Assembly (NCBI GenBank): GCA_015228925.1
Contig: JADGCQ010000005.1
Location: 3,394-67,393, forward strand
Source: Magnetococcales bacterium
GTDB lineage: Bacteria; Pseudomonadota; Magnetococcia; Magnetococcales; UBA8363
DNA length: 64,000 bases
Direction of reading: 5' to 3'
A program made the position numbers and the translations under genes. This document shows, in pieces, positions 53,031 through 64,000 of the stretch. The notes beneath the pieces are model-generated. The model saw only the letters and a program-made list of their open reading frames with translations. It was not told where the DNA came from and searched no databases. Positions within the stretch are counted from its first letter, which is position 1. Each line of letters opens with the position of its first letter.

Positions 53031-53388
53031 AAGGATCAATTTGGATTAAAGGGGGCTTGTCCAACCAAAGAATACGTTCAGATCGCCCCCACCTTAAAAC
53101 TTTTGAAAGAAAAGAAGGGGTCTCTAGGAATTCTTTCCCCAGGGTTCTGATTTTAAAAAAAAAGATCCATTCTTCGCTTTTGAATTTGCTTTTGAATTTA
53201 AACAAGAAGGTTTCCAGCTTTAAGCTTTTGATTTAAAGTCAAAAACAAATTCAAAAGCAGAAAATTGAAGCTTTTGATTTAAAGTCAAAACCCTGGGGGC
53301 AATCCCCCAGACCCCTTTTTTCTTTTAATAATTTTCTAGGGGGGTGAAAGGTTACGCATCAAGCCCCCTTCAATCCAAATTGATCCTT
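53031..53388. repeat. MITE-like element copy B: composite palindromic element bounded by 29-bp inverted repeats (28/29 match)
   Basis: aaggatcaatttggattaaagggggcttg (53031-53059) pairs with caagcccccttcaatccaaattgatcctt (53360-53388). The interior carries the copy-A core in both orientations, and agcttttgatttaaagtcaaaa occurs twice. Confidence 0.65.
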
Positions 53389-53953: not shown

Positions 53954-54781
53954 TCAGTGAACAGCCGCCCAAATACGACGCTTGACGGCGTAAAGAAGGA
54001 CGGTCAGGATAAAGAGATAACCCAATACCCAGAAACCCAAAGATTTTCTCTCGGCGACCGTAGGCTCAGCCGCCCACGACAGAAAGGTTACCACATCGTG
54101 GGAGAGCTGCTTGAGGGAGTTCTCCGTTCCATCGGTATAGCTGACCTGGCCATTGTTCAATGGCTGCGGCATAGCCAAGAAATTGCCGGGGAAATACTTG
54201 TTAAAACTGGCACCACCAATCAATCTCTCCAATGTCGCCTTGACATGATCTTTATCATGAGTATTTATCAAAAGGGCAGACTGGAGTTCAAGGGCTTCCT
54301 GATCGGAAACGCTACCATCGGCCATAACCTTATTGACCAGTTCCCTTTCCGCATCACTCAAATAGCCATTCAGGATAGCATAGGTGTAATCTTCATACCC
54401 CTTTCGCGCCTTGGTAATCAAGGAGAGGTCTGGGGGAACGACGCCGAACGCATCCTTGGCACTGGTCTCGTCCAAAGCCCCGTTCATACGATCCGTCTTA
54501 GTACGCCCCTGAACCTCGGCAAGACTTTTGACCTCCGCCTCGGTAAAACCCAACTGGCGCAGTTGATCAAACTTGACCAAGCTGATGGAATGGCAGGCCA
54601 TACACACCTCGACCGCCACCTGGGCACCGCGCTTGGCTGCGGCTTTGTCCAAAGATCCGAAAATTCCATCCTGGGACCACTTTTGCGCCGGAGGGATCGG
54701 TGTCCCCGACGAAGCATGGAGGACGGCGGGTACCATGCCTACCGCAAAACACACGGCCATAATTGTTTTGATGAGTCTCAT
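53954..54781 (-). CDS. petC: Cytochrome c1 of the bc1 complex
   Basis: Signal peptide, haem motif CMACHS and a C-terminal TM anchor. It is the third gene after Rieske and cytochrome b. Start chosen at MRLIKT with a ggag SD. Confidence 0.85.
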   Translation of the reverse strand: MRLIKTIMAVCFAVGMVPAVLHASSGTPIPPAQKWSQDGIFGSLDKAAAKRGAQVAVEVCMACHSISLVKFDQLRQLGFTEAEVKSLAEVQGRTKTDRMNGALDETSAKDAFGVVPPDLSLITKARKGYEDYTYAILNGYLSDAERELVNKVMADGSVSDQEALELQSALLINTHDKDHVKATLERLIGGASFNKYFPGNFLAMPQPLNNGQVSYTDGTENSLKQLSHDVVTFLSWAAEPTVAERKSLGFWVLGYLFILTVLLYAVKRRIWAAVH

Positions 54782-54798
54782 GATCCTAACACCTCTCC

Positions 54799-56010
54799 TC
54801 ACAGGCTTTTGGGCACAGGCCGGGGTTTTTCGATGTTCAACGCGGTGATGAGCCACAGAAGTACAAAATAGCCGAAATAGATGGCAGTACAGGTCCGTCC
54901 AATCAGGATCAGCGGAATGGCACCATGAAAGAGGCTTGCATCCGGCGGATTATACCCAACCCAACCCAGGATAATGGCATTGACAACAAACAGCCAGAAC
55001 AACTGCTTGCTCAAGGGGCGGTAACGGAACGAACGCACGGGTGACCGATCAAGGAATGGGAGTATGAACAAAATGGCGATGGAAGCCACCATGGCGATGA
55101 CGCCAGCCAGTTTGCTGAATGCCCCAAGAAAATCGATGGAACGCAAAATGGCATAGAAAGGGAGGAAATACCACTCCGGGACGATATGCGCCGGAGTTTT
55201 CATGGGGTCGGCGGGGATATAGTTGTCGGCCTCCAAGAAGGCATTGGGGGCAAAAAAGACAAAGTAACAATAGATGATCAAAAACACCCCCATGCCATAG
55301 AGATCTTTGATGGTAAAATAGGGGTGGAACGGAAGGGTATCCTTACCTTCATGAACATCGATGCCCACGGGATTGTTGGAATGGACGGCGTGGAGTGCCC
55401 AAAGGTGAACCACAACCACCCCAACAACCAGAAGTGGCAGGAGAAAATGGAGTACAAAAAACCGATTGAGCGTCGGGTCAGCGACCGAAAAACCACCCCA
55501 GATCCAGACTACCAAATCTTCCCCAACCACCGGGATGGCACTCATCAGATTGGTGATCACTGCCGCCCCCCAGTAAGACATCTGGCCCCAGGGGAGGACG
55601 TAGCCCATGAAGGCGGTCCCCATAAGCATGAAGAAAATGACGATCCCGATCCACCAGAGGATTTCCCTTGGTGCGCGGTAGGAGCCATAATACATCCCCC
55701 GCAGGATGTGAATATAGACGGCAATAAAGAAGAACGTAGCACCGTTGGCGTGCATGTAGCGCAACAGCCAGCCATAGTTCACATCACGCATGATGTGTTC
55801 TACAGAGTTAAAGGCCAACAAGGCATCGGGTTTGTAGTGCATGGCCAAAAACAGGCCAGTGGCGATCATGATGATGAGAACCATCAGTGCCAAAGATCCG
55901 AAATTCCACCAATAATTAAGGTTTTTGGGGGTCGGGTACTCGGTTGCCTGACTTTTGATTAGCTCAGTTACGGGTAGACGGGCGTCTATCCATTCCATGA
56001 TTTTTGACAC
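54799..56010 (-). CDS. petB: Cytochrome b
   Basis: [23 protein letters not shown] and [14 protein letters not shown] motifs. Confidence 0.95.
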
Positions 56011-56062
56011 GTCGAAAACTCCTATCTATTTGGCAGAAGCCAAGTGCCGCCATGATTGACAA

Positions 56063-56590
56063 TCAGCCCAATGCCTTGCCAATGACCAAGGTGGTTGGAT
56101 TCTTGAAATCATAATAGGGGACTTCAAGATTTCTCGGTGCCGGTCCCTGGCGAATTCGTCCCGAAGTGTCATAATGGGAGCCATGGCACGGACAGAGAAA
56201 ACCACCGTAGCTACCGGTCCCGATAGGCTGGGGGACGCACCCCAAATGGGTACATATCGCCAGCAACACGAGAAGTTCGGGTCGTTTAACCCGATCAGCG
56301 TCTTTGGCTGGATCGGGGAGGGATTCGCCATCACCTTTCAAGGCCATGGCGATCATCTCCGGGGTCCGGTGCAGGATAAACACAGGCTTGCCCTGCCAAG
56401 GCACGGTGATCATCTGCCCCTTCTGGAGGGTGCTGATATCAACTTCCGTGGTGGCCTGGGCCAGAACGTCAGCCGACGGACTCCATGAGCGGATGAACGG
56501 CCATGCCGCAGCGGCAACACCCGCCACTCCGAAGGCACTGGTGGTCAGGATGAGGAAATCCCGTCGATTTTCTTCTACCTCGATAGCCAT
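56063..56590 (-). CDS. petA: Ubiquinol-cytochrome c reductase Rieske iron-sulfur subunit
   Basis: Tat motif RRDFL. 2Fe-2S ligand boxes CTHLGC and CPCHGS. Start chosen at MAIEVEE. Confidence 0.9.
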   Translation of the reverse strand: MAIEVEENRRDFLILTTSAFGVAGVAAAAWPFIRSWSPSADVLAQATTEVDISTLQKGQMITVPWQGKPVFILHRTPEMIAMALKGDGESLPDPAKDADRVKRPELLVLLAICTHLGCVPQPIGTGSYGGFLCPCHGSHYDTSGRIRQGPAPRNLEVPYYDFKNPTTLVIGKALG

Positions 56591-56756
56591 GGACAATTTT
56601 GACCTCCAAGGGGTATTCGTGAAAACAGTTACCGTTTTGTGGTCCAGCGAGAACCCACAGAACGATTCCAGACCATGCAATTCTCATCAGAGTGCGCCAT
56701 GTTCCAGTCTGGCGCAGTATTTGTCAAGCCACCACTAAGAAAAAAAGGTTGGTAAA

Positions 56757-57287
56757 ATGCATTTTCTTGATTCAATCGAAGCCGAAACGGTAAAGCAACC
56801 CAAGGGACTGTTTCACATCGTCCTCTACCAACCGGAAATCCCCCCCAACACCGGAACCATCATCCGTCTCTGTGCCGCTGCCGCCTGTCCGTTGCATCTG
56901 ATTGGCCCTTTGGGATTTCGGCTGGATGCTTCCGGGTTACGGCGGGCGGGGATGGATTATCGCGACATGGCACAAACCTGCCGCTGGCGGGATTGGGACC
57001 ACTATCTGGAGGCTTATCCAGCGGCGGAAAGGCGCATTGTCGTCTCCACCAAAGGAAATGTATCGTATGATCAATGGTCCTATCGTGCGGGAGATCACCT
57101 GCTGTTTGGTTCCGAGGGGGGGGGATTACCAGCCGACATCATGCACCAGCACCGCGCAAACCTAGTCCGTATCCCCATGGCTCAGGGATGCCGCAGTCTC
57201 AATCTGGCTATAAGTACCGGCATTGTTCTCTACGAGGCGTTGCGTCAAAATCGGTTCGTAGGGCTGGTAAAGGACACATTGCGTTGA
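56757..57287 (+). CDS. trmL: tRNA (cytidine/uridine-34 2'-O)-methyltransferase TrmL (SpoU family)
   Basis: IVLYQPEIPPNTGTIIRLCAA...LRRAGMDY...SLNLAISTGIVLYEALRQ is collinear with E. coli TrmL. Confidence 0.85.
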   Translation: MHFLDSIEAETVKQPKGLFHIVLYQPEIPPNTGTIIRLCAAAACPLHLIGPLGFRLDASGLRRAGMDYRDMAQTCRWRDWDHYLEAYPAAERRIVVSTKGNVSYDQWSYRAGDHLLFGSEGGGLPADIMHQHRANLVRIPMAQGCRSLNLAISTGIVLYEALRQNRFVGLVKDTLR

Positions 57288-57289
57288 GG

Positions 57290-57856
57290 TCACGCCGCCA
57301 AGTTGGTGCTGGTGGATTGCACGTTGTTGGCTGTGAGAGGGGCTAGGTTGTGGCGTTCGATATCAAACAGGATGGTCGAAAAGAGAAACAGGTCAAAAGG
57401 TGGACGAGGACCGCCTGTTGGCAGGCTGGGGAGGCAATGGCGTTGGATATGACATTGGCGTAAGGCACGAAAAATGTGAAATTCATAGCCCCAACCATCT
57501 TCCTGGGACGGAGGATAGGAAAACCCGAAGTTTTCAAGGATTTCCAAGCGGGTTGCGTCGATGGAATTTGGATTTTTCTTAACGATAACACGGAGAAAGG
57601 CAATAAGGGTATTGATGGCACATTGGAACGCAAGAATTTCGTTGGAGAAAAAAGCATATTTTGACCATTCGTCTCCAGTTATCGATTGCACACGTTGGAA
57701 AACACCCTTGTGGAGAAAGGCCCCGGCGACGCAGGCTCCTAATTTGTGCCGATCCAGATATTTGGGATGCAGGGAATCGTCACCAGTGGCGGCGGCGATT
57801 TTTTGCATTTGGGTTTGCATGTGAGAGCGCAAATGCACAAAGGTGTTTGCCACCAT
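57290..57856 (-). CDS. Hypothetical protein (188 aa). The same frame continues upstream through one TAA to an ATG at 58000
   Basis: ORF from the track. Hand translation of 57857-58000 gives MTKTALVANVTDPKEWFHNYWD*SFSHEVQLVLARGSGEIALVDNARD in frame. Confidence 0.4.
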   Translation of the reverse strand: MVANTFVHLRSHMQTQMQKIAAATGDDSLHPKYLDRHKLGACVAGAFLHKGVFQRVQSITGDEWSKYAFFSNEILAFQCAINTLIAFLRVIVKKNPNSIDATRLEILENFGFSYPPSQEDGWGYEFHIFRALRQCHIQRHCLPSLPTGGPRPPFDLFLFSTILFDIERHNLAPLTANNVQSTSTNLAA

Positions 57857-58233
57857 GTCCCGTGCATTATCAACAAGGGCAATCTCGCCGGAACCCCTGG
57901 CAAGAACGAGCTGAACCTCATGGGAAAAACTTTAATCCCAATAGTTATGGAACCACTCTTTAGGATCGGTCACATTGGCGACTAATGCCGTCTTGGTCAT
58001 GCGATGACACCTTTGCGTTGCTATGGTGGGGATCCGATAAAAGCGCGGGAGGCTAAACCAAAACAACCCTGCTGTCAACCATCAGAGTACGAACGTAAGC
58101 GAGGCTGCGACGGAAATCTCGATAAGAGGAAAAACGCCAGAGCCGCAACGGAGCGGCTCCTGGGTTCGTGCGATGAACGGCTAGCAAGAGAACAACGGGA
58201 CCAACGATCTGCTACCGATCAAACGTGCAGTGA

Positions 58234-58455
58234 TCAGGCGGGGGGACGGATTTTGGCTCGCGCTGGAGGAACCTCATACATGTCCACCTCCGTATTATCG
58301 AAGGGGAGTACCTTTTCATAAAATTCCTTTTCCGTGACTTTCTCATCCCACATCGGTGAAGAGGCTACCTTATGCGACCACTCTGGATTAGACCTGGGAT
58401 TAGACTTGGCACTAGGAAGTGCCACGGGGTTGGATTCTGAGTGATTGTGATTCAT
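58234..58455 (-). CDS. Small hypothetical protein (73 aa; His/Ser/Pro-rich N-terminus, acidic C-terminus)
   Basis: A strong SD (gggaggagg) lies immediately upstream of the ATG. No domain was recognised. Confidence 0.5.
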   Translation of the reverse strand: MNHNHSESNPVALPSAKSNPRSNPEWSHKVASSPMWDEKVTEKEFYEKVLPFDNTEVDMYEVPPARAKIRPPA

Positions 58456-58970
58456 AACCTCCTCCCTTTGTGATGTGAACCTTATTGCCCCACGTCCCGT
58501 GATACGTCGGCAAAATGTTCCTTATTGTCTCACCCTTGACGCCGCCGTCACAGACCGTTGCGTGACGCATGGCACCACCTGACTGTTGCATCAATATATT
58601 GATCTAACTAACAAAAAACACAAACCCCTGAATGATACCGCCTTTAGAACTCAACGATAAAGGTACCATATGTGCCTCATTGTGCAAGGATCAAACCAGC
58701 GTCCCAAAAATTGGCCAAAGCTTTTCCGAACGTGCCGTGGCATCTGTGAGTGAGACCACAACAAACTCACCCAACATCCATGCTACTCTCATTGAACCGC
58801 AAAATCGATGGGTAAGTGTGTGTTTGTTCATTTCGATAAAATATATGAAAATTATCTTTTAAAATAGCCTATTAGTAGTGTATATAGAATAATTTATGAA
58901 CATTGGTGCCTAAATTGAGGTACTCTGACTGGCTTAAGGTTTGATAGTATTTCTAACTGGAGAGGTTCAT

Positions 58971-59885
58971 ATGATTGGCAATTCTCAAGGCTCGGTTTCC
59001 TACAGACTGAGGTTGTTCCTTGCGGTTGACCTTCAAAACTCAACGGCATTGAAATTCCGGTTCTTCTGCGAAGGGATGTCCTATTGGCGATCATTTCTCG
59101 CAGGCTTCTATCGAGAGTTTGCGACCGTTTTTCTCGAATCTTTGGATGGTATCGGAAAAAAGCCTGGGGTGGGTTCATTGGTCCCGGTTCAGATATGGAA
59201 AAGCAGTGGTGATGAGGTGGTCATGGTGGTTGATCTCAGGCATCGAAGACATCTGAAATATTATCTCAAGGCGTTTCGCGATGGTGTACGGCGTTATAAC
59301 GCGACACTGGCTGAAAAAGACCCAGAGATTTTTCGAGTGGGTGGTGAGACATTGCGGATGCGGTTGAAACCCAGGGCATGGTTGGCCGATTTTCCCATCA
59401 ACAATATGGAATTCTCCACACCGCATGGTACGTTGGAACGCAGTGATGACAATAAAATGCCGTGGAGTTTGGAAATTCCCGATTATTTTGGACCTGCAAT
59501 GGATGTGGGATTTCGTCTGGGATCCCTGGCCACGAGCCGCAAGTTTGTATTGTCGGTGGAGACGGTGTGGGCCTTGGTGGGAGAAGAGGATGAGACAATC
59601 AAAGATTTTCGTCTTTTCATGGAAGGGCGTGTCCCCTTGAAGGGGGTCCGTGGTGGTGAATCCTACCCGGTTTTTTGGCTTGATCTGGAAAAAGAGATAC
59701 CGGATGAAGATGCCTGGACGGGGTTGCGTCCTTTTGCGTCGAATACGGATTATGAAAAAATAGAGAAATTGTGTCGCGGTTTTATTGGGATGGACAAAAA
59801 TCCATTGCTCAGGCCAATATTTATCGATGATGAAAAATTGCCTCCTGCATTTTCTGATACCATGTATCGTATACAGGAGGTGTAG
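58971..59885 (+). CDS. Stand-alone divergent class III nucleotidyl-cyclase-homology (palm) domain protein with an unknown C-terminal region of about 100 aa
   Basis: ATG 58971 follows a ggagagg SD. LRLFLAVDLQNSTALKF resembles vLFaDIvGFTal. IWKSSGDEVVMVV resembles KtiGDavMavF. DYFGPAMDVGFRLGSLA resembles dyfGdtVNlAaRleS.A. Confidence 0.55.
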   Translation: MIGNSQGSVSYRLRLFLAVDLQNSTALKFRFFCEGMSYWRSFLAGFYREFATVFLESLDGIGKKPGVGSLVPVQIWKSSGDEVVMVVDLRHRRHLKYYLKAFRDGVRRYNATLAEKDPEIFRVGGETLRMRLKPRAWLADFPINNMEFSTPHGTLERSDDNKMPWSLEIPDYFGPAMDVGFRLGSLATSRKFVLSVETVWALVGEEDETIKDFRLFMEGRVPLKGVRGGESYPVFWLDLEKEIPDEDAWTGLRPFASNTDYEKIEKLCRGFIGMDKNPLLRPIFIDDEKLPPAFSDTMYRIQEV

Positions 59886-59904
59886 TATCCGAGACCGCAT
59901 TCCT

Positions 59905-60447
59905 TTAGGAAATGGTACTGACTTCGGGCAGACGACTTCCAAGCCGACAGGGTGTACAAACAACGATGCATTCGCTGTCAAACAAAGCCATTTTTCCGCG
60001 CAAGACATCCCGGAACCGTGTTCTTAACGTCGCAAAATGTTGCCGTTTGAACCAGTCTGGAACATCCAACACGATCACGATGCAGATCGGACAAATGGGT
60101 GTGTGGAATTCCTCCGGCAGATCGGCACGGAATTTTGTTCCTTTATCGGTTGGGAGCCAACAGGCCGAAAACATGAGCAGAGAGTCCCATACCTTGGGGG
60201 CCGTTTTATCAACCAGATACTCTACGAACTGCTCAGCAGTGACGTTTTTCTCTTTGGCCTGTTCCCTCTCATCCGAATAAGCTTTGGCCTCCAGCATGAA
60301 TAACTTGCCGTCACGCAACCAACAAAAATCCATCTCTTTGACATGCTGACCTGAAATTTTCTTATAGGCAGCCAAATTCTGAAAACGGAAATGGGGTATG
60401 CCGGTCAAATCGACCCGAACGTTCGATTCCTCATAAATGGCCACCAC
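59905..60447 (-). CDS. Putative PD-(D/E)xK-fold nuclease (180 aa)
   Basis: E6/E7 ... D40 ... E53-A-K55 (KEMDFCWLRDGKLFMLEAKAY) has the spacing typical of restriction-endonuclease-like cores. Its start abuts the ATPase stop. Confidence 0.45.
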   Translation of the reverse strand: MVAIYEESNVRVDLTGIPHFRFQNLAAYKKISGQHVKEMDFCWLRDGKLFMLEAKAYSDEREQAKEKNVTAEQFVEYLVDKTAPKVWDSLLMFSACWLPTDKGTKFRADLPEEFHTPICPICIVIVLDVPDWFKRQHFATLRTRFRDVLRGKMALFDSECIVVCTPCRLGSRLPEVSTIS

Positions 60448-61548
60448 CTATTCTCCCCAATCCAGCCGGATGTCTTCGTTGAGCAGATATTCCGATTGAG
60501 TAAGTATGGGGTTGTCAGGCATCTCATTGCGTAAATCGTGGAAGGTGGCAGTAACCCCCGTTGGAGATTTCCGCAGGTCCACCAAAGACGTTTTTGTTTG
60601 TGTACGGCGAGCCAGTTGTTCAATGCGTTTAAGAAAAAAATAACTGTGGGTGGCGGCGTAGACCTGAATGCCCGCTTGGCTCAGGGCAAAAAGAATGTCC
60701 GCCAACGCAATGATCGCTTGCGGATGCAGATTGACCTCCGGTTCGTCAACCAGGAGGACGCTCCCCTGGGTCAAGCTACGGTTTAAAATCAAACGACTCA
60801 GGATACCAATTTTCTTAAATCCCTCCGATGTCAGTGACATGGAGTAGGTTTTGCCTTCTCTTTGATAGACAAATTTGGATCCGACTTCGGCTATCTCTCC
60901 GTTATGTAATGTTTTTTTAATTGTAGTGAGAATATTCTCCAGTTTTGGTTCAATTTTCCCGTAGGTGGGGGCGGCACGAAAATCATCGATCAAATCCAGG
61001 TAGGTGTCATCAAAACCCGCAATTTCCATCCTTCTTCGGGTTGCCTCAATGGCGTGCATGGCGGTAAGAATTTCTTTGGGTGGAAAAAAAACAACCGGTC
61101 CGATCGGATTAACCGCAAATGAGATCTCATTAAAAGTTTCTGGTATAACCGATACGGAAAAGGAGAATTCACCGCCTCCCACACATGCCTTCATTTTCAA
61201 GGATTCTTGGCCACCACGGATCAAGTGTGCATGATTGAAATCTTTCGGTTGCATCGTCCATGACAACTTGTTGCGGAAACAATCCACCCATGCTTCTGGT
61301 TGTGGTCCGTCTCTTTTCTGAACGAACAGGTTAATACTACGCCCTACGGAATAGAGCATTTTCAGCAGATGCGTTTTGCCCGTATCATTTTCGCCGATGA
61401 TGACGTTCATGGCGGAATGGTCCAGCCAGTCCAGTTGGGCAAACGATGTAAAATTGGTCAGTTCCAAGCTGGAAAACACGCATCCGCTCCCTCGATTGCC
61501 ACCCCTGTCCGACGGGTTGCACGGCGTCGGAAGGGGTGGGTCGATCAT
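60448..61548 (-). CDS. ABC/SMC-like AAA ATPase (AAA_15/AAA_21 type)
   Basis: Walker A GENDTGKT. Signature-like LTSEG. Walker B VLLVDEPEVNLHP. H-loop ATHS. An alternative GTG start at 61479 has a gagggag SD. Confidence 0.75.
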   Translation of the reverse strand: MIDPPLPTPCNPSDRGGNRGSGCVFSSLELTNFTSFAQLDWLDHSAMNVIIGENDTGKTHLLKMLYSVGRSINLFVQKRDGPQPEAWVDCFRNKLSWTMQPKDFNHAHLIRGGQESLKMKACVGGGEFSFSVSVIPETFNEISFAVNPIGPVVFFPPKEILTAMHAIEATRRRMEIAGFDDTYLDLIDDFRAAPTYGKIEPKLENILTTIKKTLHNGEIAEVGSKFVYQREGKTYSMSLTSEGFKKIGILSRLILNRSLTQGSVLLVDEPEVNLHPQAIIALADILFALSQAGIQVYAATHSYFFLKRIEQLARRTQTKTSLVDLRKSPTGVTATFHDLRNEMPDNPILTQSEYLLNEDIRLDWGE

Positions 61549-62522
61549 TATTTCGACTTCTCTTTGATCTCTTTATCGAGGACTTCCTTAAAGGCGTCCA
61601 AAGGCACCGCCCCGACCAGCTTCAATCCGTTGATGAAAAACGTTGGGGTTCCCGTGATTCCCAATTGTTGTCCTTCGGCGGAGTCCGAAGCAATGCGAGA
61701 GGCGTGACGACCACTGGTGAGGCACTCATCAAATTTGGCGGTATCCAATTTCAGTTTTGTGGCCAATTCTTTCAAGGCATCCACGGCCAAAGATTGAGAA
61801 TCGGCAAACAATGCATCATGAAAATCCCAAAACTTGCTCTGCTCGTTGGCGCACATGGCCGCCTCCGAGGCTTTCGGGGCGAGCTTATGGAACGGCAGCG
61901 GATAGTGCCGGAATACAAATCGCAGTTTATCACCATAGGTTTCCTTCAATTTACCCAGTACCGCTTGCGCTTTGCGGCAATAGGGACACTCAAAATCGGA
62001 AAACTCAATGATGGTGACCGGGGCGTTGGCCGGACCGCGACTCAAATCTTGGGGGCCGGTGACGGTGTAGCGCGGCTCTTCCAATAAAATTTCTACCTTG
62101 TACCGGCTGGCCAAATCTTCATGGTACTTGGTCTTGGCCAATTTCAGTGCCTGATTTTCCAAAAATGAGTGAACCTTTTCCTTGATGCCGGGATCGTTGG
62201 CTGGAATCTTGGCCTTGTTGGCCTCCATAAACTGCTTGACCTGATCCTCGGTAACCGGTACCAAATATTTGGCCGCCATCTTGTCCACAACCTGATCCTT
62301 GGGAATGTTGTTGGCCTTGGATTCAAGTTCCAACAAATGGTCGAGGACTTCCGCTTCAATCTTTTCAATCCGAAGATCATGGACCTGCCCAGAAATCATG
62401 GTGTCCACCTTGCCAAGATCAAGGGTCCAATCCCCCACACGGGCTGCCGGTTCTCCCTGGACCTGAATGGGCAACAACAGTACAAACAAACTTGAAAGAA
62501 GCAAGCCTTTAATTTTACTCAT
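61548..62522 (-). CDS. DsbA-family thiol:disulfide oxidoreductase with an N-terminal chaperone-like extension
   Basis: Signal peptide MSKIKGLLLSSLFVLLLPIQVQG. Thioredoxin motif FSDFECPYCRKA. Start at ATG 62522 with an aagga SD. Confidence 0.8.
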   Translation of the reverse strand: MSKIKGLLLSSLFVLLLPIQVQGEPAARVGDWTLDLGKVDTMISGQVHDLRIEKIEAEVLDHLLELESKANNIPKDQVVDKMAAKYLVPVTEDQVKQFMEANKAKIPANDPGIKEKVHSFLENQALKLAKTKYHEDLASRYKVEILLEEPRYTVTGPQDLSRGPANAPVTIIEFSDFECPYCRKAQAVLGKLKETYGDKLRFVFRHYPLPFHKLAPKASEAAMCANEQSKFWDFHDALFADSQSLAVDALKELATKLKLDTAKFDECLTSGRHASRIASDSAEGQQLGITGTPTFFINGLKLVGAVPLDAFKEVLDKEIKEKSK

Positions 62523-62574
62523 AAAACGATCCTTGGATAAAGGGAGAAGGGGGGCAAATAAAAAACCATGCTGT

Positions 62575-63006
62575 TCATGAACCATAAATCTGCTCTGCTC
62601 TTTTGCAAAAAGATTCTACCATGGAATGGGATGCCTTGCTAAATACCGGACCCATGGCCAAATCAACCAGCTTTTTACTGAACGTGAAGTCGATGGAAAA
62701 CGCAACCTTCGAACCGTTGGGCATATCGATGAATTGCCACTCACTGTCGAGATGGCTAAAGGGGCCGGATAGATTGGAAATGGTAATGCGATGGGGAGGA
62801 TCCACCTCATCGTAGGTGCAAAAAGTCTCCCGTAACCCCTTAAAAGCAAAGGTCATCTCCGATTTAAATCCCTTTTCGGTGACTTCAAACTTGCGCGATT
62901 TGACCAGCCAGGGGATAAATTCTGGATAGCGATCCATATCGGCGACCAGTTCAAACATTTGCTGTGCCGAAAAAGGGACAAGAACACTGGTGCTACGTTT
63001 AGGCAT
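62575..63006 (-). CDS. SRPBCC/START-fold protein of the RatA / PasT / Coq10 family
   Basis: 143 aa. VPFSAQQMFELVADMDRYPEFIPW...FKGLRETF... is the typical pattern. Confidence 0.8.
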   Translation of the reverse strand: MPKRSTSVLVPFSAQQMFELVADMDRYPEFIPWLVKSRKFEVTEKGFKSEMTFAFKGLRETFCTYDEVDPPHRITISNLSGPFSHLDSEWQFIDMPNGSKVAFSIDFTFSKKLVDLAMGPVFSKASHSMVESFCKRAEQIYGS

Positions 63007-63447
63007 TTATCGACCTCCCTGTCCGTAAAGAGCCTGCGCCCGTTTGCGAAAGGCGCCAATCATCTGCTTGGATACCTGCGAAAAAACCGGCCCCATGATC
63101 ATCTCCTTCATGCGGCTGTCAAATTTAAAATCAATAAAAAAATCAACGCTTGTGACACCATTATTTTCTGTAAAAATCCAGGTGCTGACGAGATATTGGA
63201 ATGGACCTGATTTTAAATTGATCTCCACCTTCTTCCCAGGAACCACAACGTCCAACGTTTGGAAACTCTCACGCAACCCCTTGAATGAAACCGTCAACTC
63301 AGCCAAAAACTGACCTGGTTGCTGATCCCAGGCCCGCGCTTTGACACACCATGGAAGAAATTGCGGATATTTCTCCACGTCAATGACGAGATCATAAATC
63401 TGCATGGCGGAAAATGGCAGGGTTTCACTGACGCGGATTCTTGGCAT
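63007..63447 (-). CDS. Second, tandem RatA / Coq10-family SRPBCC paralogue
   Basis: LPFSAMQIYDLVIDVEKYPQFLPW...FKGLRESF. Its stop directly abuts the ATG of the downstream paralogue. Start chosen at ATG 63447; the track ORF begins at a TTG at 63486. Confidence 0.75.
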   Translation of the reverse strand: MPRIRVSETLPFSAMQIYDLVIDVEKYPQFLPWCVKARAWDQQPGQFLAELTVSFKGLRESFQTLDVVVPGKKVEINLKSGPFQYLVSTWIFTENNGVTSVDFFIDFKFDSRMKEMIMGPVFSQVSKQMIGAFRKRAQALYGQGGR

Positions 63448-63616
63448 AAAGGGATTCGTGATGTTTCGTGATGCGGTTGTTGTCAACGACGCTTCGTTGA
63501 AATATGCTCAGGGCCAAGCATATTGCAATGTGATGGATGGGTCCATGAATTCTGGTATTTTTTTCGCGGTTCTTTTATGGACGGGGCTGTCTTAATAAAA
63601 ATTCAAGGAAACCAAA

Positions 63617-64000
63617 GTGAAAGATCCTCTATCTACTTCCGGTACACCGTTACCGAAATCCTCTGCCCTCTCTGCCAACCTTGCCCAAACCAAGGTTGAA
63701 GCCGTTACCATCGATCCCGCCCATGAGGTGCTACGCGACGTTGTGCGCGATTATCAAGGCATTTTGGATACCTTGGACCGGTTACTCCTGGAACTCAATC
63801 ATCCTTTTCGCAATTGGACCGTCATCCTGCCAGAACTTAAAAGCTTCGTTCTGAAGCATGTTGGCATCTATCTCGGCCATGAACGGGGACCGGAATGTTT
63901 GACGTTGTTTTACCGTTTGTTTCGCCAAGCCCAAGGTGAAGGGGTACGCACCGACCTTTCCCGACCCGCTTGGGAGGCATTAAGTGCCTGTATGGTGCGT
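63617..64000 (+). CDS. 5' part of an ORF running off the window (hypothetical)
   Basis: GTG 63617 follows an aaggaa SD. The frame stays open for 128 codons to the window end. Confidence 0.4.
   Translation, partial: MKDPLSTSGTPLPKSSALSANLAQTKVEAVTIDPAHEVLRDVVRDYQGILDTLDRLLLELNHPFRNWTVILPELKSFVLKHVGIYLGHERGPECLTLFYRLFRQAQGEGVRTDLSRPAWEALSACMVR

Follow-up and report, generated by a model that had tools for sequence, protein, structure and literature searches.

An islet between dsbA and trmL of a Magnetococcales genome likely joins two independent modules, a predicted HEC-02 ATPase-nuclease pair and a partly decayed cassette with a divergent cyclase-fold protein

We analysed an islet (57290-61548) lying between a trmL-type methyltransferase gene and a dsbA-like gene in the window, by which we mean the whole 64,000-nt stretch of contig JADGCQ010000005.1 of a Magnetococcales bacterium. 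We suggest that the islet is likely to be made up of two independent accessory modules, set next to each other at a variable site that follows the ratA-ratA-dsbA genes: a HEC-02 system, as predicted from profiles and motifs, and an uncharacterised cassette built around a divergent cyclase-fold protein, which is partly decayed. An earlier note on this DNA had seen here five genes of one candidate defence system. All five open reading frames (ORFs) are present at the coordinates it gave, and the parts of the two modules, as compared with the closest relative (contig L008), are as follows.

57268-59916: three-gene cassette (module A), 2.65 kb, delimited by blastn of the window against L008
57290-58000, - strand: p237, an interrupted 237-codon gene; the 188-aa ORF at 57290-57856 is its 3' part
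57932-57934, - strand: in-frame TAA, codon 23 of p237, which is Glu in the L002 homologue
58160-58139, - strand: terminator-like hairpin with a T-run, 3' of the 73-aa gene
58234-58455, - strand: p73, a 73-aa small protein with a strong Shine-Dalgarno (SD) sequence, covered by a four-copy alignment
58456-58970: AT-rich divergent intergenic spacer between p73 and the cyclase-like gene, GC 0.42
58971-59885, + strand: stand-alone cyclase-like protein, 304 aa, assigned by AlphaFold2 and Foldseek
59905-60447, - strand: predicted HEC-02B, a NERD-like PD-(D/E)xK nuclease of 180 aa (module B; PADLOC PDLC04224)
60448-61548, - strand: predicted HEC-02A, an ABC-type ATPase of 366 aa when counted from ATG 61548 (module B; PADLOC PDLC04214)
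61112-61243, - strand: hypervariable insert of the ATPase, about aa 103-146, unalignable with L008

The islet is accessory DNA, because trmL adjoins dsbA (0-320 bp) in six other Magnetococcales genomes. Scanning of the GTDB species genomes with the dsbA-like protein gave 23 Magnetococcales loci, which were then compared by tblastn with the window proteins. Four of them (L010, L013, L025, and L026) are free of the islet, with trmL (- strand) at most 100 bp away from dsbA and followed by petABC, and in two others (L017 and L020) trmL comes after a gap of ~300 bp (276-318 bp). This is the arrangement that the earlier note had proposed to look for, and its view of an accessory islet set between conserved genes is thereby borne out. 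In L008 (DCbin2, dsbA 96% identical) the order is ratA2-ratA1-dsbA-HEC-02A-HEC-02B-trmL-petABC, and the other three genes are absent. According to blastn, window positions 53954-57267 and 59917-63999 are ~90-92% identical to L008 at the nucleotide level, and positions 57268-59916 stand where L008 has 62 bp. Further to that, the trio occurs with no nearby HEC-02 at other loci (L001+L007, L002, L006, and L180). We conclude that the two modules are independent, since each of them is found without the other. Neighbouring 'defence-like' parts in one islet therefore need not be one system, and it is synteny that separates them here.

The same observations make it very improbable that the five genes form one new defence system in which a cyclase signal controls the ATPase-nuclease pair, as the earlier note had it. 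The genes do adjoin, and an ATPase, a nuclease, and a cyclase all occur in known defence systems. However, L008 has HEC-02 without the trio, and four other assemblies have the trio without HEC-02. HEC-02B and the cyclase gene lie on opposite strands and converge, so that the two share no operon; HEC-02 works with two genes; and p237 is broken in this copy. In none of our results is the cyclase connected with the ATPase or with the nuclease.

When compared with L008, the cassette has one border within the final codons of trmL and the other within those of HEC-02B (57268-57287 and 59905-59916), with the last 20 nt of trmL (57268-57287) non-homologous to L008, and consequently the C-termini of both proteins differ between the window and L008. 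A distinct base composition, for which the earlier note had suggested a check, was not found: GC is 0.475-0.50 in the islet genes and 0.465-0.557 in the flanking genes, and GC at third codon positions (GC3) is 0.50-0.55 and 0.52-0.64, respectively. This overlap rules out composition as a sign of foreign origin, and the islet is marked by synteny rather than by composition. As no tRNA or tmRNA was found in the whole window and no Rfam family over 56000-64000 (E≤1), there is no tRNA attachment site.

The ATPase-nuclease pair, which had been taken for undescribed, is judged by its profile matches to be a member of HEC-02, an already described system. The ATPase matches HEC-02A (PDLC04214) at 1.5e-89 (298.6 bits, profile positions 2-336 of 338, starting from residue 25), and the 180-aa protein matches HEC-02B (PDLC04224) at 4.5e-40 (positions 2-163 of 182). 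The islet thus holds predicted defence genes, as the earlier note supposed, and the PADLOC run that it advised had a divided outcome, with the ATPase and the nuclease placed in HEC-02 and the cyclase-like protein, p73, and p237 left without a match. In the description by Payne et al. (bioRxiv 10.1101/2024.01.29.577857), HEC-02 pairs an ABC ATPase with a NERD-type PD-(D/E)xK protein; they reported that it cut plaquing of several coliphages in E. coli, with both genes needed, and proposed that the inserts of the ATPase are determinants of defence specificity. The window pair shares with it the two-gene order, ABC-type ATPase and then NERD-like PD-(D/E)xK protein, near-full-length profile coverage, and intact motifs. 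HEC-02 stands for Hma-embedded candidate 02 (Payne et al., 10.1101/2024.01.29.577857; PADLOC-DB v2). The window pair differs in lying by itself between dsbA and trmL and outside any Hma (helicase-methylase-ATPase) system; such embedding was the context of discovery of HEC-02 and is not a requirement. Neither a helicase nor a methylase adjoins the window pair, the flanks of which are the dsbA-like gene, trmL, and the cyclase cassette.

The individual gene calls of the earlier note for this pair hold up well. Besides its HEC-02A match, the ABC-type ATPase matches AAA_21 (6e-18) and AAA_15 (3e-15), and its Walker A (GENDTGKT), Walker B (LLVDEPE), and ATHS H-loop motifs are invariant in the window, L008, and L014. 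In the PD-(D/E)xK-like nuclease, which matches the HEC-02B profile and for which the Pfam NERD model gives no match, D40 and E53-A-K55 (the E53-x-K55 of the motif) are likewise invariant across the three orthologues. The third of these, at L014 (Magnetococcus sp. YQC-5), belongs to a 62%-identical HEC-02 pair that also lies by dsbA, in the opposite orientation (HEC-02A 1.7e-88, HEC-02B 4.9e-40). HEC-02A is followed by HEC-02B on one strand with a 0-nt gap (60447/60448). The true start of the ATPase is probably GTG 61479 and not ATG 61548, since the profile match begins at residue 25, the L014 homologue begins at the equivalent position, and GAGGGAG, a likely SD sequence, precedes this GTG. With this HEC-02 copy, a recently described ABC-ATPase/NERD system is now seen in magnetotactic bacteria as well.

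Could the pair instead be a housekeeping DNA repair function of the RecF/SbcC type, co-transcribed with dsbA? The stop codon of dsbA shares 1 nt with the overlapping ATG 61548 of the ATPase ORF, and the ATPase gives weak N-terminal matches to SMC_N and RecF. We consider this extremely unlikely, as the pair is absent in most relatives, HEC-02 profiles outscore repair families by >80 orders of magnitude, the sensor insert is hypervariable, and the likely start at GTG 61479 comes with its own SD sequence.

The HEC-02 proteins of the window and L008 are 78% and 85% identical, against 95-99% for the flanking proteins. This divergence is focused on one ATPase segment (61112-61243), which is unalignable and includes a 12-aa indel, and the ATPase is ~90% identical to L008 outside it. 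Unlike the other features that it shares with described HEC-02 systems, the insert is thus strongly different even from that of the nearest relative. The segment resembles a fast-evolving or recombined sensor insert. Under the model of Payne et al., the ATPase would sense an infection cue via its variable inserts and would then license the NERD nuclease to cut nucleic acid, a mechanism that we infer here from the intact motifs and the hypervariable insert. A divergence focused in this way on the insert, between genomes that are ~91% identical, makes this segment worth testing in the light of the proposal of Payne et al.

Weaker PADLOC matches of the ATPase, all falling in its C-terminal half, are to AriA (1e-18), AbiLi (2e-18), PD-T4-4_A (3e-17), PtuA (4.7e-12), and GajA (4e-11). 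This reflects the likeness of HEC-02 to Septu, Gabija, PARIS, AbiL, and PD-T4-4, which have in common the logic of an ABC ATPase sensor and a nuclease; the partners differ, being HNH (PtuB) in Septu, a UvrD helicase (GajB) in Gabija, and TOPRIM in PARIS (AriB) or fused in GajA, whereas the predicted partner here is NERD-like. A true Septu is present at the equivalent site in L009 (DCbin4), consisting of PtuB (3.4e-81) and PtuA (7.3e-119) with a HEPN gene. In this locus (L009 11058-16439) the PtuA, of 1,210 aa, is fused to an N-terminal STAND NTPase with TPR repeats, and the HEPN-domain gene comes next.

Copies of the three-gene cassette have unrelated surroundings. P0002 (L001) and P0003 (L002) are 63-65% identical to the cyclase-like protein and have both partners adjoining, in the layout of a ~70-aa protein divergent from the cyclase gene and then a 237-244-aa protein; L006 has the same trio, L007 (from the same sample as L001) has a 244-aa gene at the contig start, and L180 (1126-3430) is a fifth, decayed copy. 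The window copy is flanked by trmL and HEC-02B and that of L002 by Ppnp and a peptidase S11 gene; the trio of L001+L007 sits between an AMP-binding gene and LuxC/LuxE, and that of L180 beside adjacent AMP-binding and LuxC/LuxE genes. Homology between copies ends at the stop codons, and no terminal direct or inverted repeats, shared flanks, or recombinase were found among them.

The 188-aa ORF was rightly read as interrupted: it belongs to a 237-codon gene with one in-frame TAA at 57932-57934. The intact gene would start at ATG 58000 and aligns in a single frame by tblastn to the 244-aa L002 homologue with 55% identity; the gene is intact in the homologues P0012 (237 aa) and P0013 (244 aa). No convincing SD sequence was seen, on direct reading, before the next ATG of p237 (57856). 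This TAA has pseudogenised the window p237, which probably leaves the cassette of this genome impaired. Decay is also seen in L180: an in-frame stop interrupts the cyclase gene, and of p237 only the first 28 and the last 33 codons are left, with p73 intact. The p237 protein is all-helical and gave no match in Pfam, PADLOC, NCBIfam, PHROG, or PDB; its hydropathy maximum over 19 residues, 1.79 with an Arg inside, is borderline. Two candidate identities were ruled out by hhalign: a degenerate M78 peptidase, suggested by 'ANELLAF' as a likeness of 'AHELGH' (probability 0.4%), and a PycTM-like effector (0.1%).

The strong SD sequence that the earlier note had seen before the 73-aa ORF is there (AAGGGAGGAGGTT-ATG upstream), and the SD of p73 reads AAGGGAGGAGG. 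In the four-copy alignment the C-terminal half of p73 is conserved (WDEK-TEK-FYE----F-N-E-DMYEV). The p73 family has 5 members and the p237 family 4, all from Magnetococcales, and all 5 p73 members adjoin a cyclase-like gene; searches with p73 and p237 against PDB by sequence yielded nothing meaningful.

Of the intergenic regions, the 230-bp gap between p73 and p237 (58001-58233) exists as the earlier note had it, but the view that it has no assignable feature does not stand. It reads as a 3' end followed by a promoter, because it contains the terminator-like hairpin (58160-58139 on the - strand), the sequence of which is also found in L006, as well as a TTGAC-N17-TAG(C/T)CT block that is conserved directly upstream of p237. 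The AT-rich spacer reported between p73 and the cyclase gene (58456-58970) is AT-rich indeed, with GC of 0.42 vs 0.50 for the whole window. A spacer of 497-782 bp separates these two genes in all five loci (window, L001, L002, L006, and L180), and conservation relative to L006 is confined to two short blocks (58460-58522 and 58766-58815). No Rfam match, conserved ORF, or strong conservation was found in it; presumably it holds two divergent promoters.

The central protein of the cassette is 100% identical, over full coverage, to NCBI HQL75_02365 of a Magnetococcales metagenome-assembled genome (MAG), and this full-coverage match supports the ATG start of its gene, with GGAGAGG upstream. The earlier note had called it a cyclase-homology protein, and structure prediction confirms a divergent class III nucleotidyl-cyclase fold. 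The AlphaFold2 model, built with nine homologues, has a mean predicted local distance difference test score (pLDDT) of 81 and a predicted TM-score (pTM) of 0.86. In a Foldseek search of PDB with this model, the top 50 matches were all class III adenylyl/guanylyl cyclase catalytic domains, the best having E 2.4e-8 and probability 1.0, with target-normalised TM-scores of 0.6-0.74. Seven residues (D20, K77, D81, D171, D178, R182, and K224) are 90-100% conserved in 133 family members. D20 is at the end of strand 1 (F-x-x-D-x-x-(G/N)-S-T), K77 and D81 are in a W-K-x-x-G-D-E hairpin, and K224 is in L-K-G-V. We take the conserved positions to match the two metal-binding Asp, the substrate-defining Lys/Asp pair, the transition-state Arg, and the phosphate-binding Lys of canonical cyclases, in which case the enzyme would keep both metal-binding aspartates (D20 and D81). 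By sequence, the protein matches PHROG 18024, of unknown function, at 2.3e-23.

The wider cyclase-fold family is large: its profile recovers 2,110 clusters (50% identity), and 894 of these reach E≤1e-30. We gathered 94 loci (12 from viral contigs, 80 from metagenome contigs, and two from exact look-ups; L003, L005, and L088-L179). In 59 of the 94, a gene for an M78 peptidase (166-190 aa) lies directly upstream on the same strand, and the proportion is 55/77 among loci having >600 bp of upstream sequence. The gaps between the M78 and cyclase-like genes are mostly -20 to +20 nt, with stop and start overlapping by 1-20 nt at roughly half of these loci, and 57 of the 59 peptidases carry HExxH. The best PADLOC match of the M78 proteins is CapP (1e-24 to 1e-27), followed by RmrA (1e-13 to 1e-17); they span only positions 4-153 of the 242-position CapP profile, which is its peptidase part. 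A helix-turn-helix (HTH) partner was seen in only 1/43 upstream neighbours. CapH, an HTH repressor, and CapP, an M78 peptidase, control CBASS, Pycsar, BREX, and DISARM operons in response to DNA damage, and Lau et al. 2022 reported CapH/CapP-like genes beside 'nucleotide cyclase' systems. The wider family resembles these in that its cyclase gene follows a CapP-like M78 gene, whereas the window cassette has neither an M78 nor an HTH gene.

PycTM, the membrane effector of Pycsar, is adjacent to the cyclase-like gene in 6 loci, as the next gene in 4/44 and as the second gene upstream in 2/43; these PycTM-neighboured loci include L102, L115, L122, and L135. In L115 (2485-5013) an operon runs M78 - 426-aa cyclase-fold protein - PycTM, the last matching at 5e-11 in Pfam and 7e-19 in PADLOC. 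L122 and L135 also carry the M78 - cyclase-fold - PycTM arrangement. This is a Pycsar-like arrangement with a cyclase that is invisible to PycC and Pfam profiles; the window protein and four other family members matched 0 PADLOC families. Pycsar consists of a PycC cyclase, which forms cCMP or cUMP upon infection, and a PycTM or PycTIR effector. The window protein shares with Pycsar the class III cyclase fold and the metal-binding Asp pair, as modelled, and distant members of its family adjoin PycTM, but it fails the PycC profiles and Pfam Guanylate_cyc. The window also has no cyclic nucleoside monophosphate (cNMP)-binding, transmembrane, or TIR effector, its partners p73 and p237 having no Pfam or PADLOC match. 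It differs from CBASS in that the predicted enzyme has the class III cyclase fold and not that of a CD-NTase, a Pol-beta-type nucleotidyltransferase, and no CBASS profile matched.

Family members also neighbour genes for integrases, transposases, a resolvase, and a capsid protein, and they occur on 12 viral contigs. A search of 50,697 records of isolated phages gave a single homologue of the cyclase-like protein, Orf1 of Leptospira phage LE1 (NC_048892.1 72203-72781; 27% identity, E 2e-11). The wider family thus looks like a cyclase-based signalling module on mobile elements, and in the window clade p73 and p237 have taken the place of the M78 peptidase. The larger lead is this big class III cyclase-fold family itself, undetected by Pfam, NCBIfam, and PADLOC; should its members turn out to synthesise signalling nucleotides, cyclase-based immunity or phage-host signalling would have a wider range than is now known. 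One member (L132 4965-6221) has a PcrA/UvrD Tudor-like domain at its C-terminus, with a match (7e-5) that narrowly misses the Pfam cut-off, and this hints that the C-terminal modules of the family are variable.

All biochemical activities named for the two modules are predictions. The cyclase-fold enzyme would produce a second messenger of nucleotide type, for which a 3',5'-cNMP is the likeliest candidate, and p73 and p237 would be the regulator and/or target of this enzyme. A number of observations weigh against our account of the islet. The description of HEC-02 rests on one preprint. The cyclase-like protein has no Pfam (including Guanylate_cyc), PADLOC, or NCBIfam match. Even the deep, 133-member family profile finds no solved cyclase in PDB by sequence, and for this reason the equivalence of residues with canonical cyclases is one that we infer from motif position and the model; the canonical transition-state Asn appears to be replaced by Asp178. 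The window clade lacks M78 and PycTM and is 28-31% identical to its distant relatives, so that transfer of function from them is weak. Neither p73 nor p237 has a domain recognisable by Pfam or PADLOC, and the AlphaFold2 model of p237 from a 3-sequence alignment (pLDDT 45) is unusable. The TAA in p237 could in principle be a consensus error of the MAG. Finally, many other Magnetococcales have ordinary, unrelated genes downstream of dsbA (JAB, PanD, TyrRS, M24 peptidase); this weakens the idea of a general 'defence hotspot' downstream of dsbA over all Magnetococcales, which fits only a sub-lineage.

For the function of module A, a lineage-specific regulatory role is a serious rival, if a somewhat unlikely one. 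Class III cyclases are mostly regulatory, and the module would be a non-immune cyclic-nucleotide regulator of Magnetococcales, placed beside HEC-02 by chance. It fits this that p73 and p237 are confined to Magnetococcales, that the trio lies by LuxC/LuxE, AMP-binding, and Fe-ADH genes in two genomes, and that PADLOC gives no match. The distribution argues otherwise: the cassette is patchy, is absent from the closest relative (L008), and varies in location by genome, 2 of its 5 copies are pseudogenised, and the wider family is found mainly in prophage or mobile-element contexts with M78 and sometimes PycTM.

Alternatively, module A may be a toxin-antitoxin-like or addiction cassette, in which a cyclase-fold toxin, acting for instance by NTP depletion or a toxic nucleotide, would be curbed by p73/p237, with M78 as the antitoxin or regulator in the wider family, as in RosmerTA. 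The translational coupling of the upstream M78 gene, with its 1-20 nt overlaps, the RmrA matches of the M78 proteins, the lack of a separate effector gene in most loci, and the movement of the window cassette without a recombinase are all in line with this. However, the cyclase-like proteins match neither RmrT nor other PADLOC models, and the gene inactivated in the window is p237 and not the cyclase, and we regard an addiction function as quite improbable.

A defence role of module A is plausible in view of the family contexts and the patchy, decaying, mobile behaviour of the cassette. The stronger proposal, that the trio is a cyclic-nucleotide anti-phage or abortive-infection system with p237 as a new effector, and that the M78-coupled family is a widespread, unrecognised Pycsar-related signalling defence borne by prophages and mobile elements, we see as tentative and on balance unlikely.

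The genes on either side of the islet agree with the housekeeping flanks of the earlier note, its tandem Coq10/RatA genes included. Exact-protein look-ups of trmL and of P0005 returned no record.

53954-56680, - strand: petCBA, with the Rieske domain confirmed
56757-57287, + strand: trmL-type SpoU methyltransferase, left flank (Pfam SpoU_methylase 4.4e-30)
61548-62585, - strand: DsbA-like thioredoxin-fold gene, right flank (Pfam Thioredoxin_4 5.7e-33, DSBA 5.5e-26)
62575-63486, - strand: two tandem START/Polyketide_cyc (RatA/Coq10-type) paralogues

In the AT-rich gap 3' of petC, at window positions 53297-53343, there is a GC hairpin with a T-run (CTGGGGGCAATCCCCCAG). Contig L008 has this hairpin sequence at each of its two ends, and we therefore suspect a repeated terminator-like element at which assemblies break.

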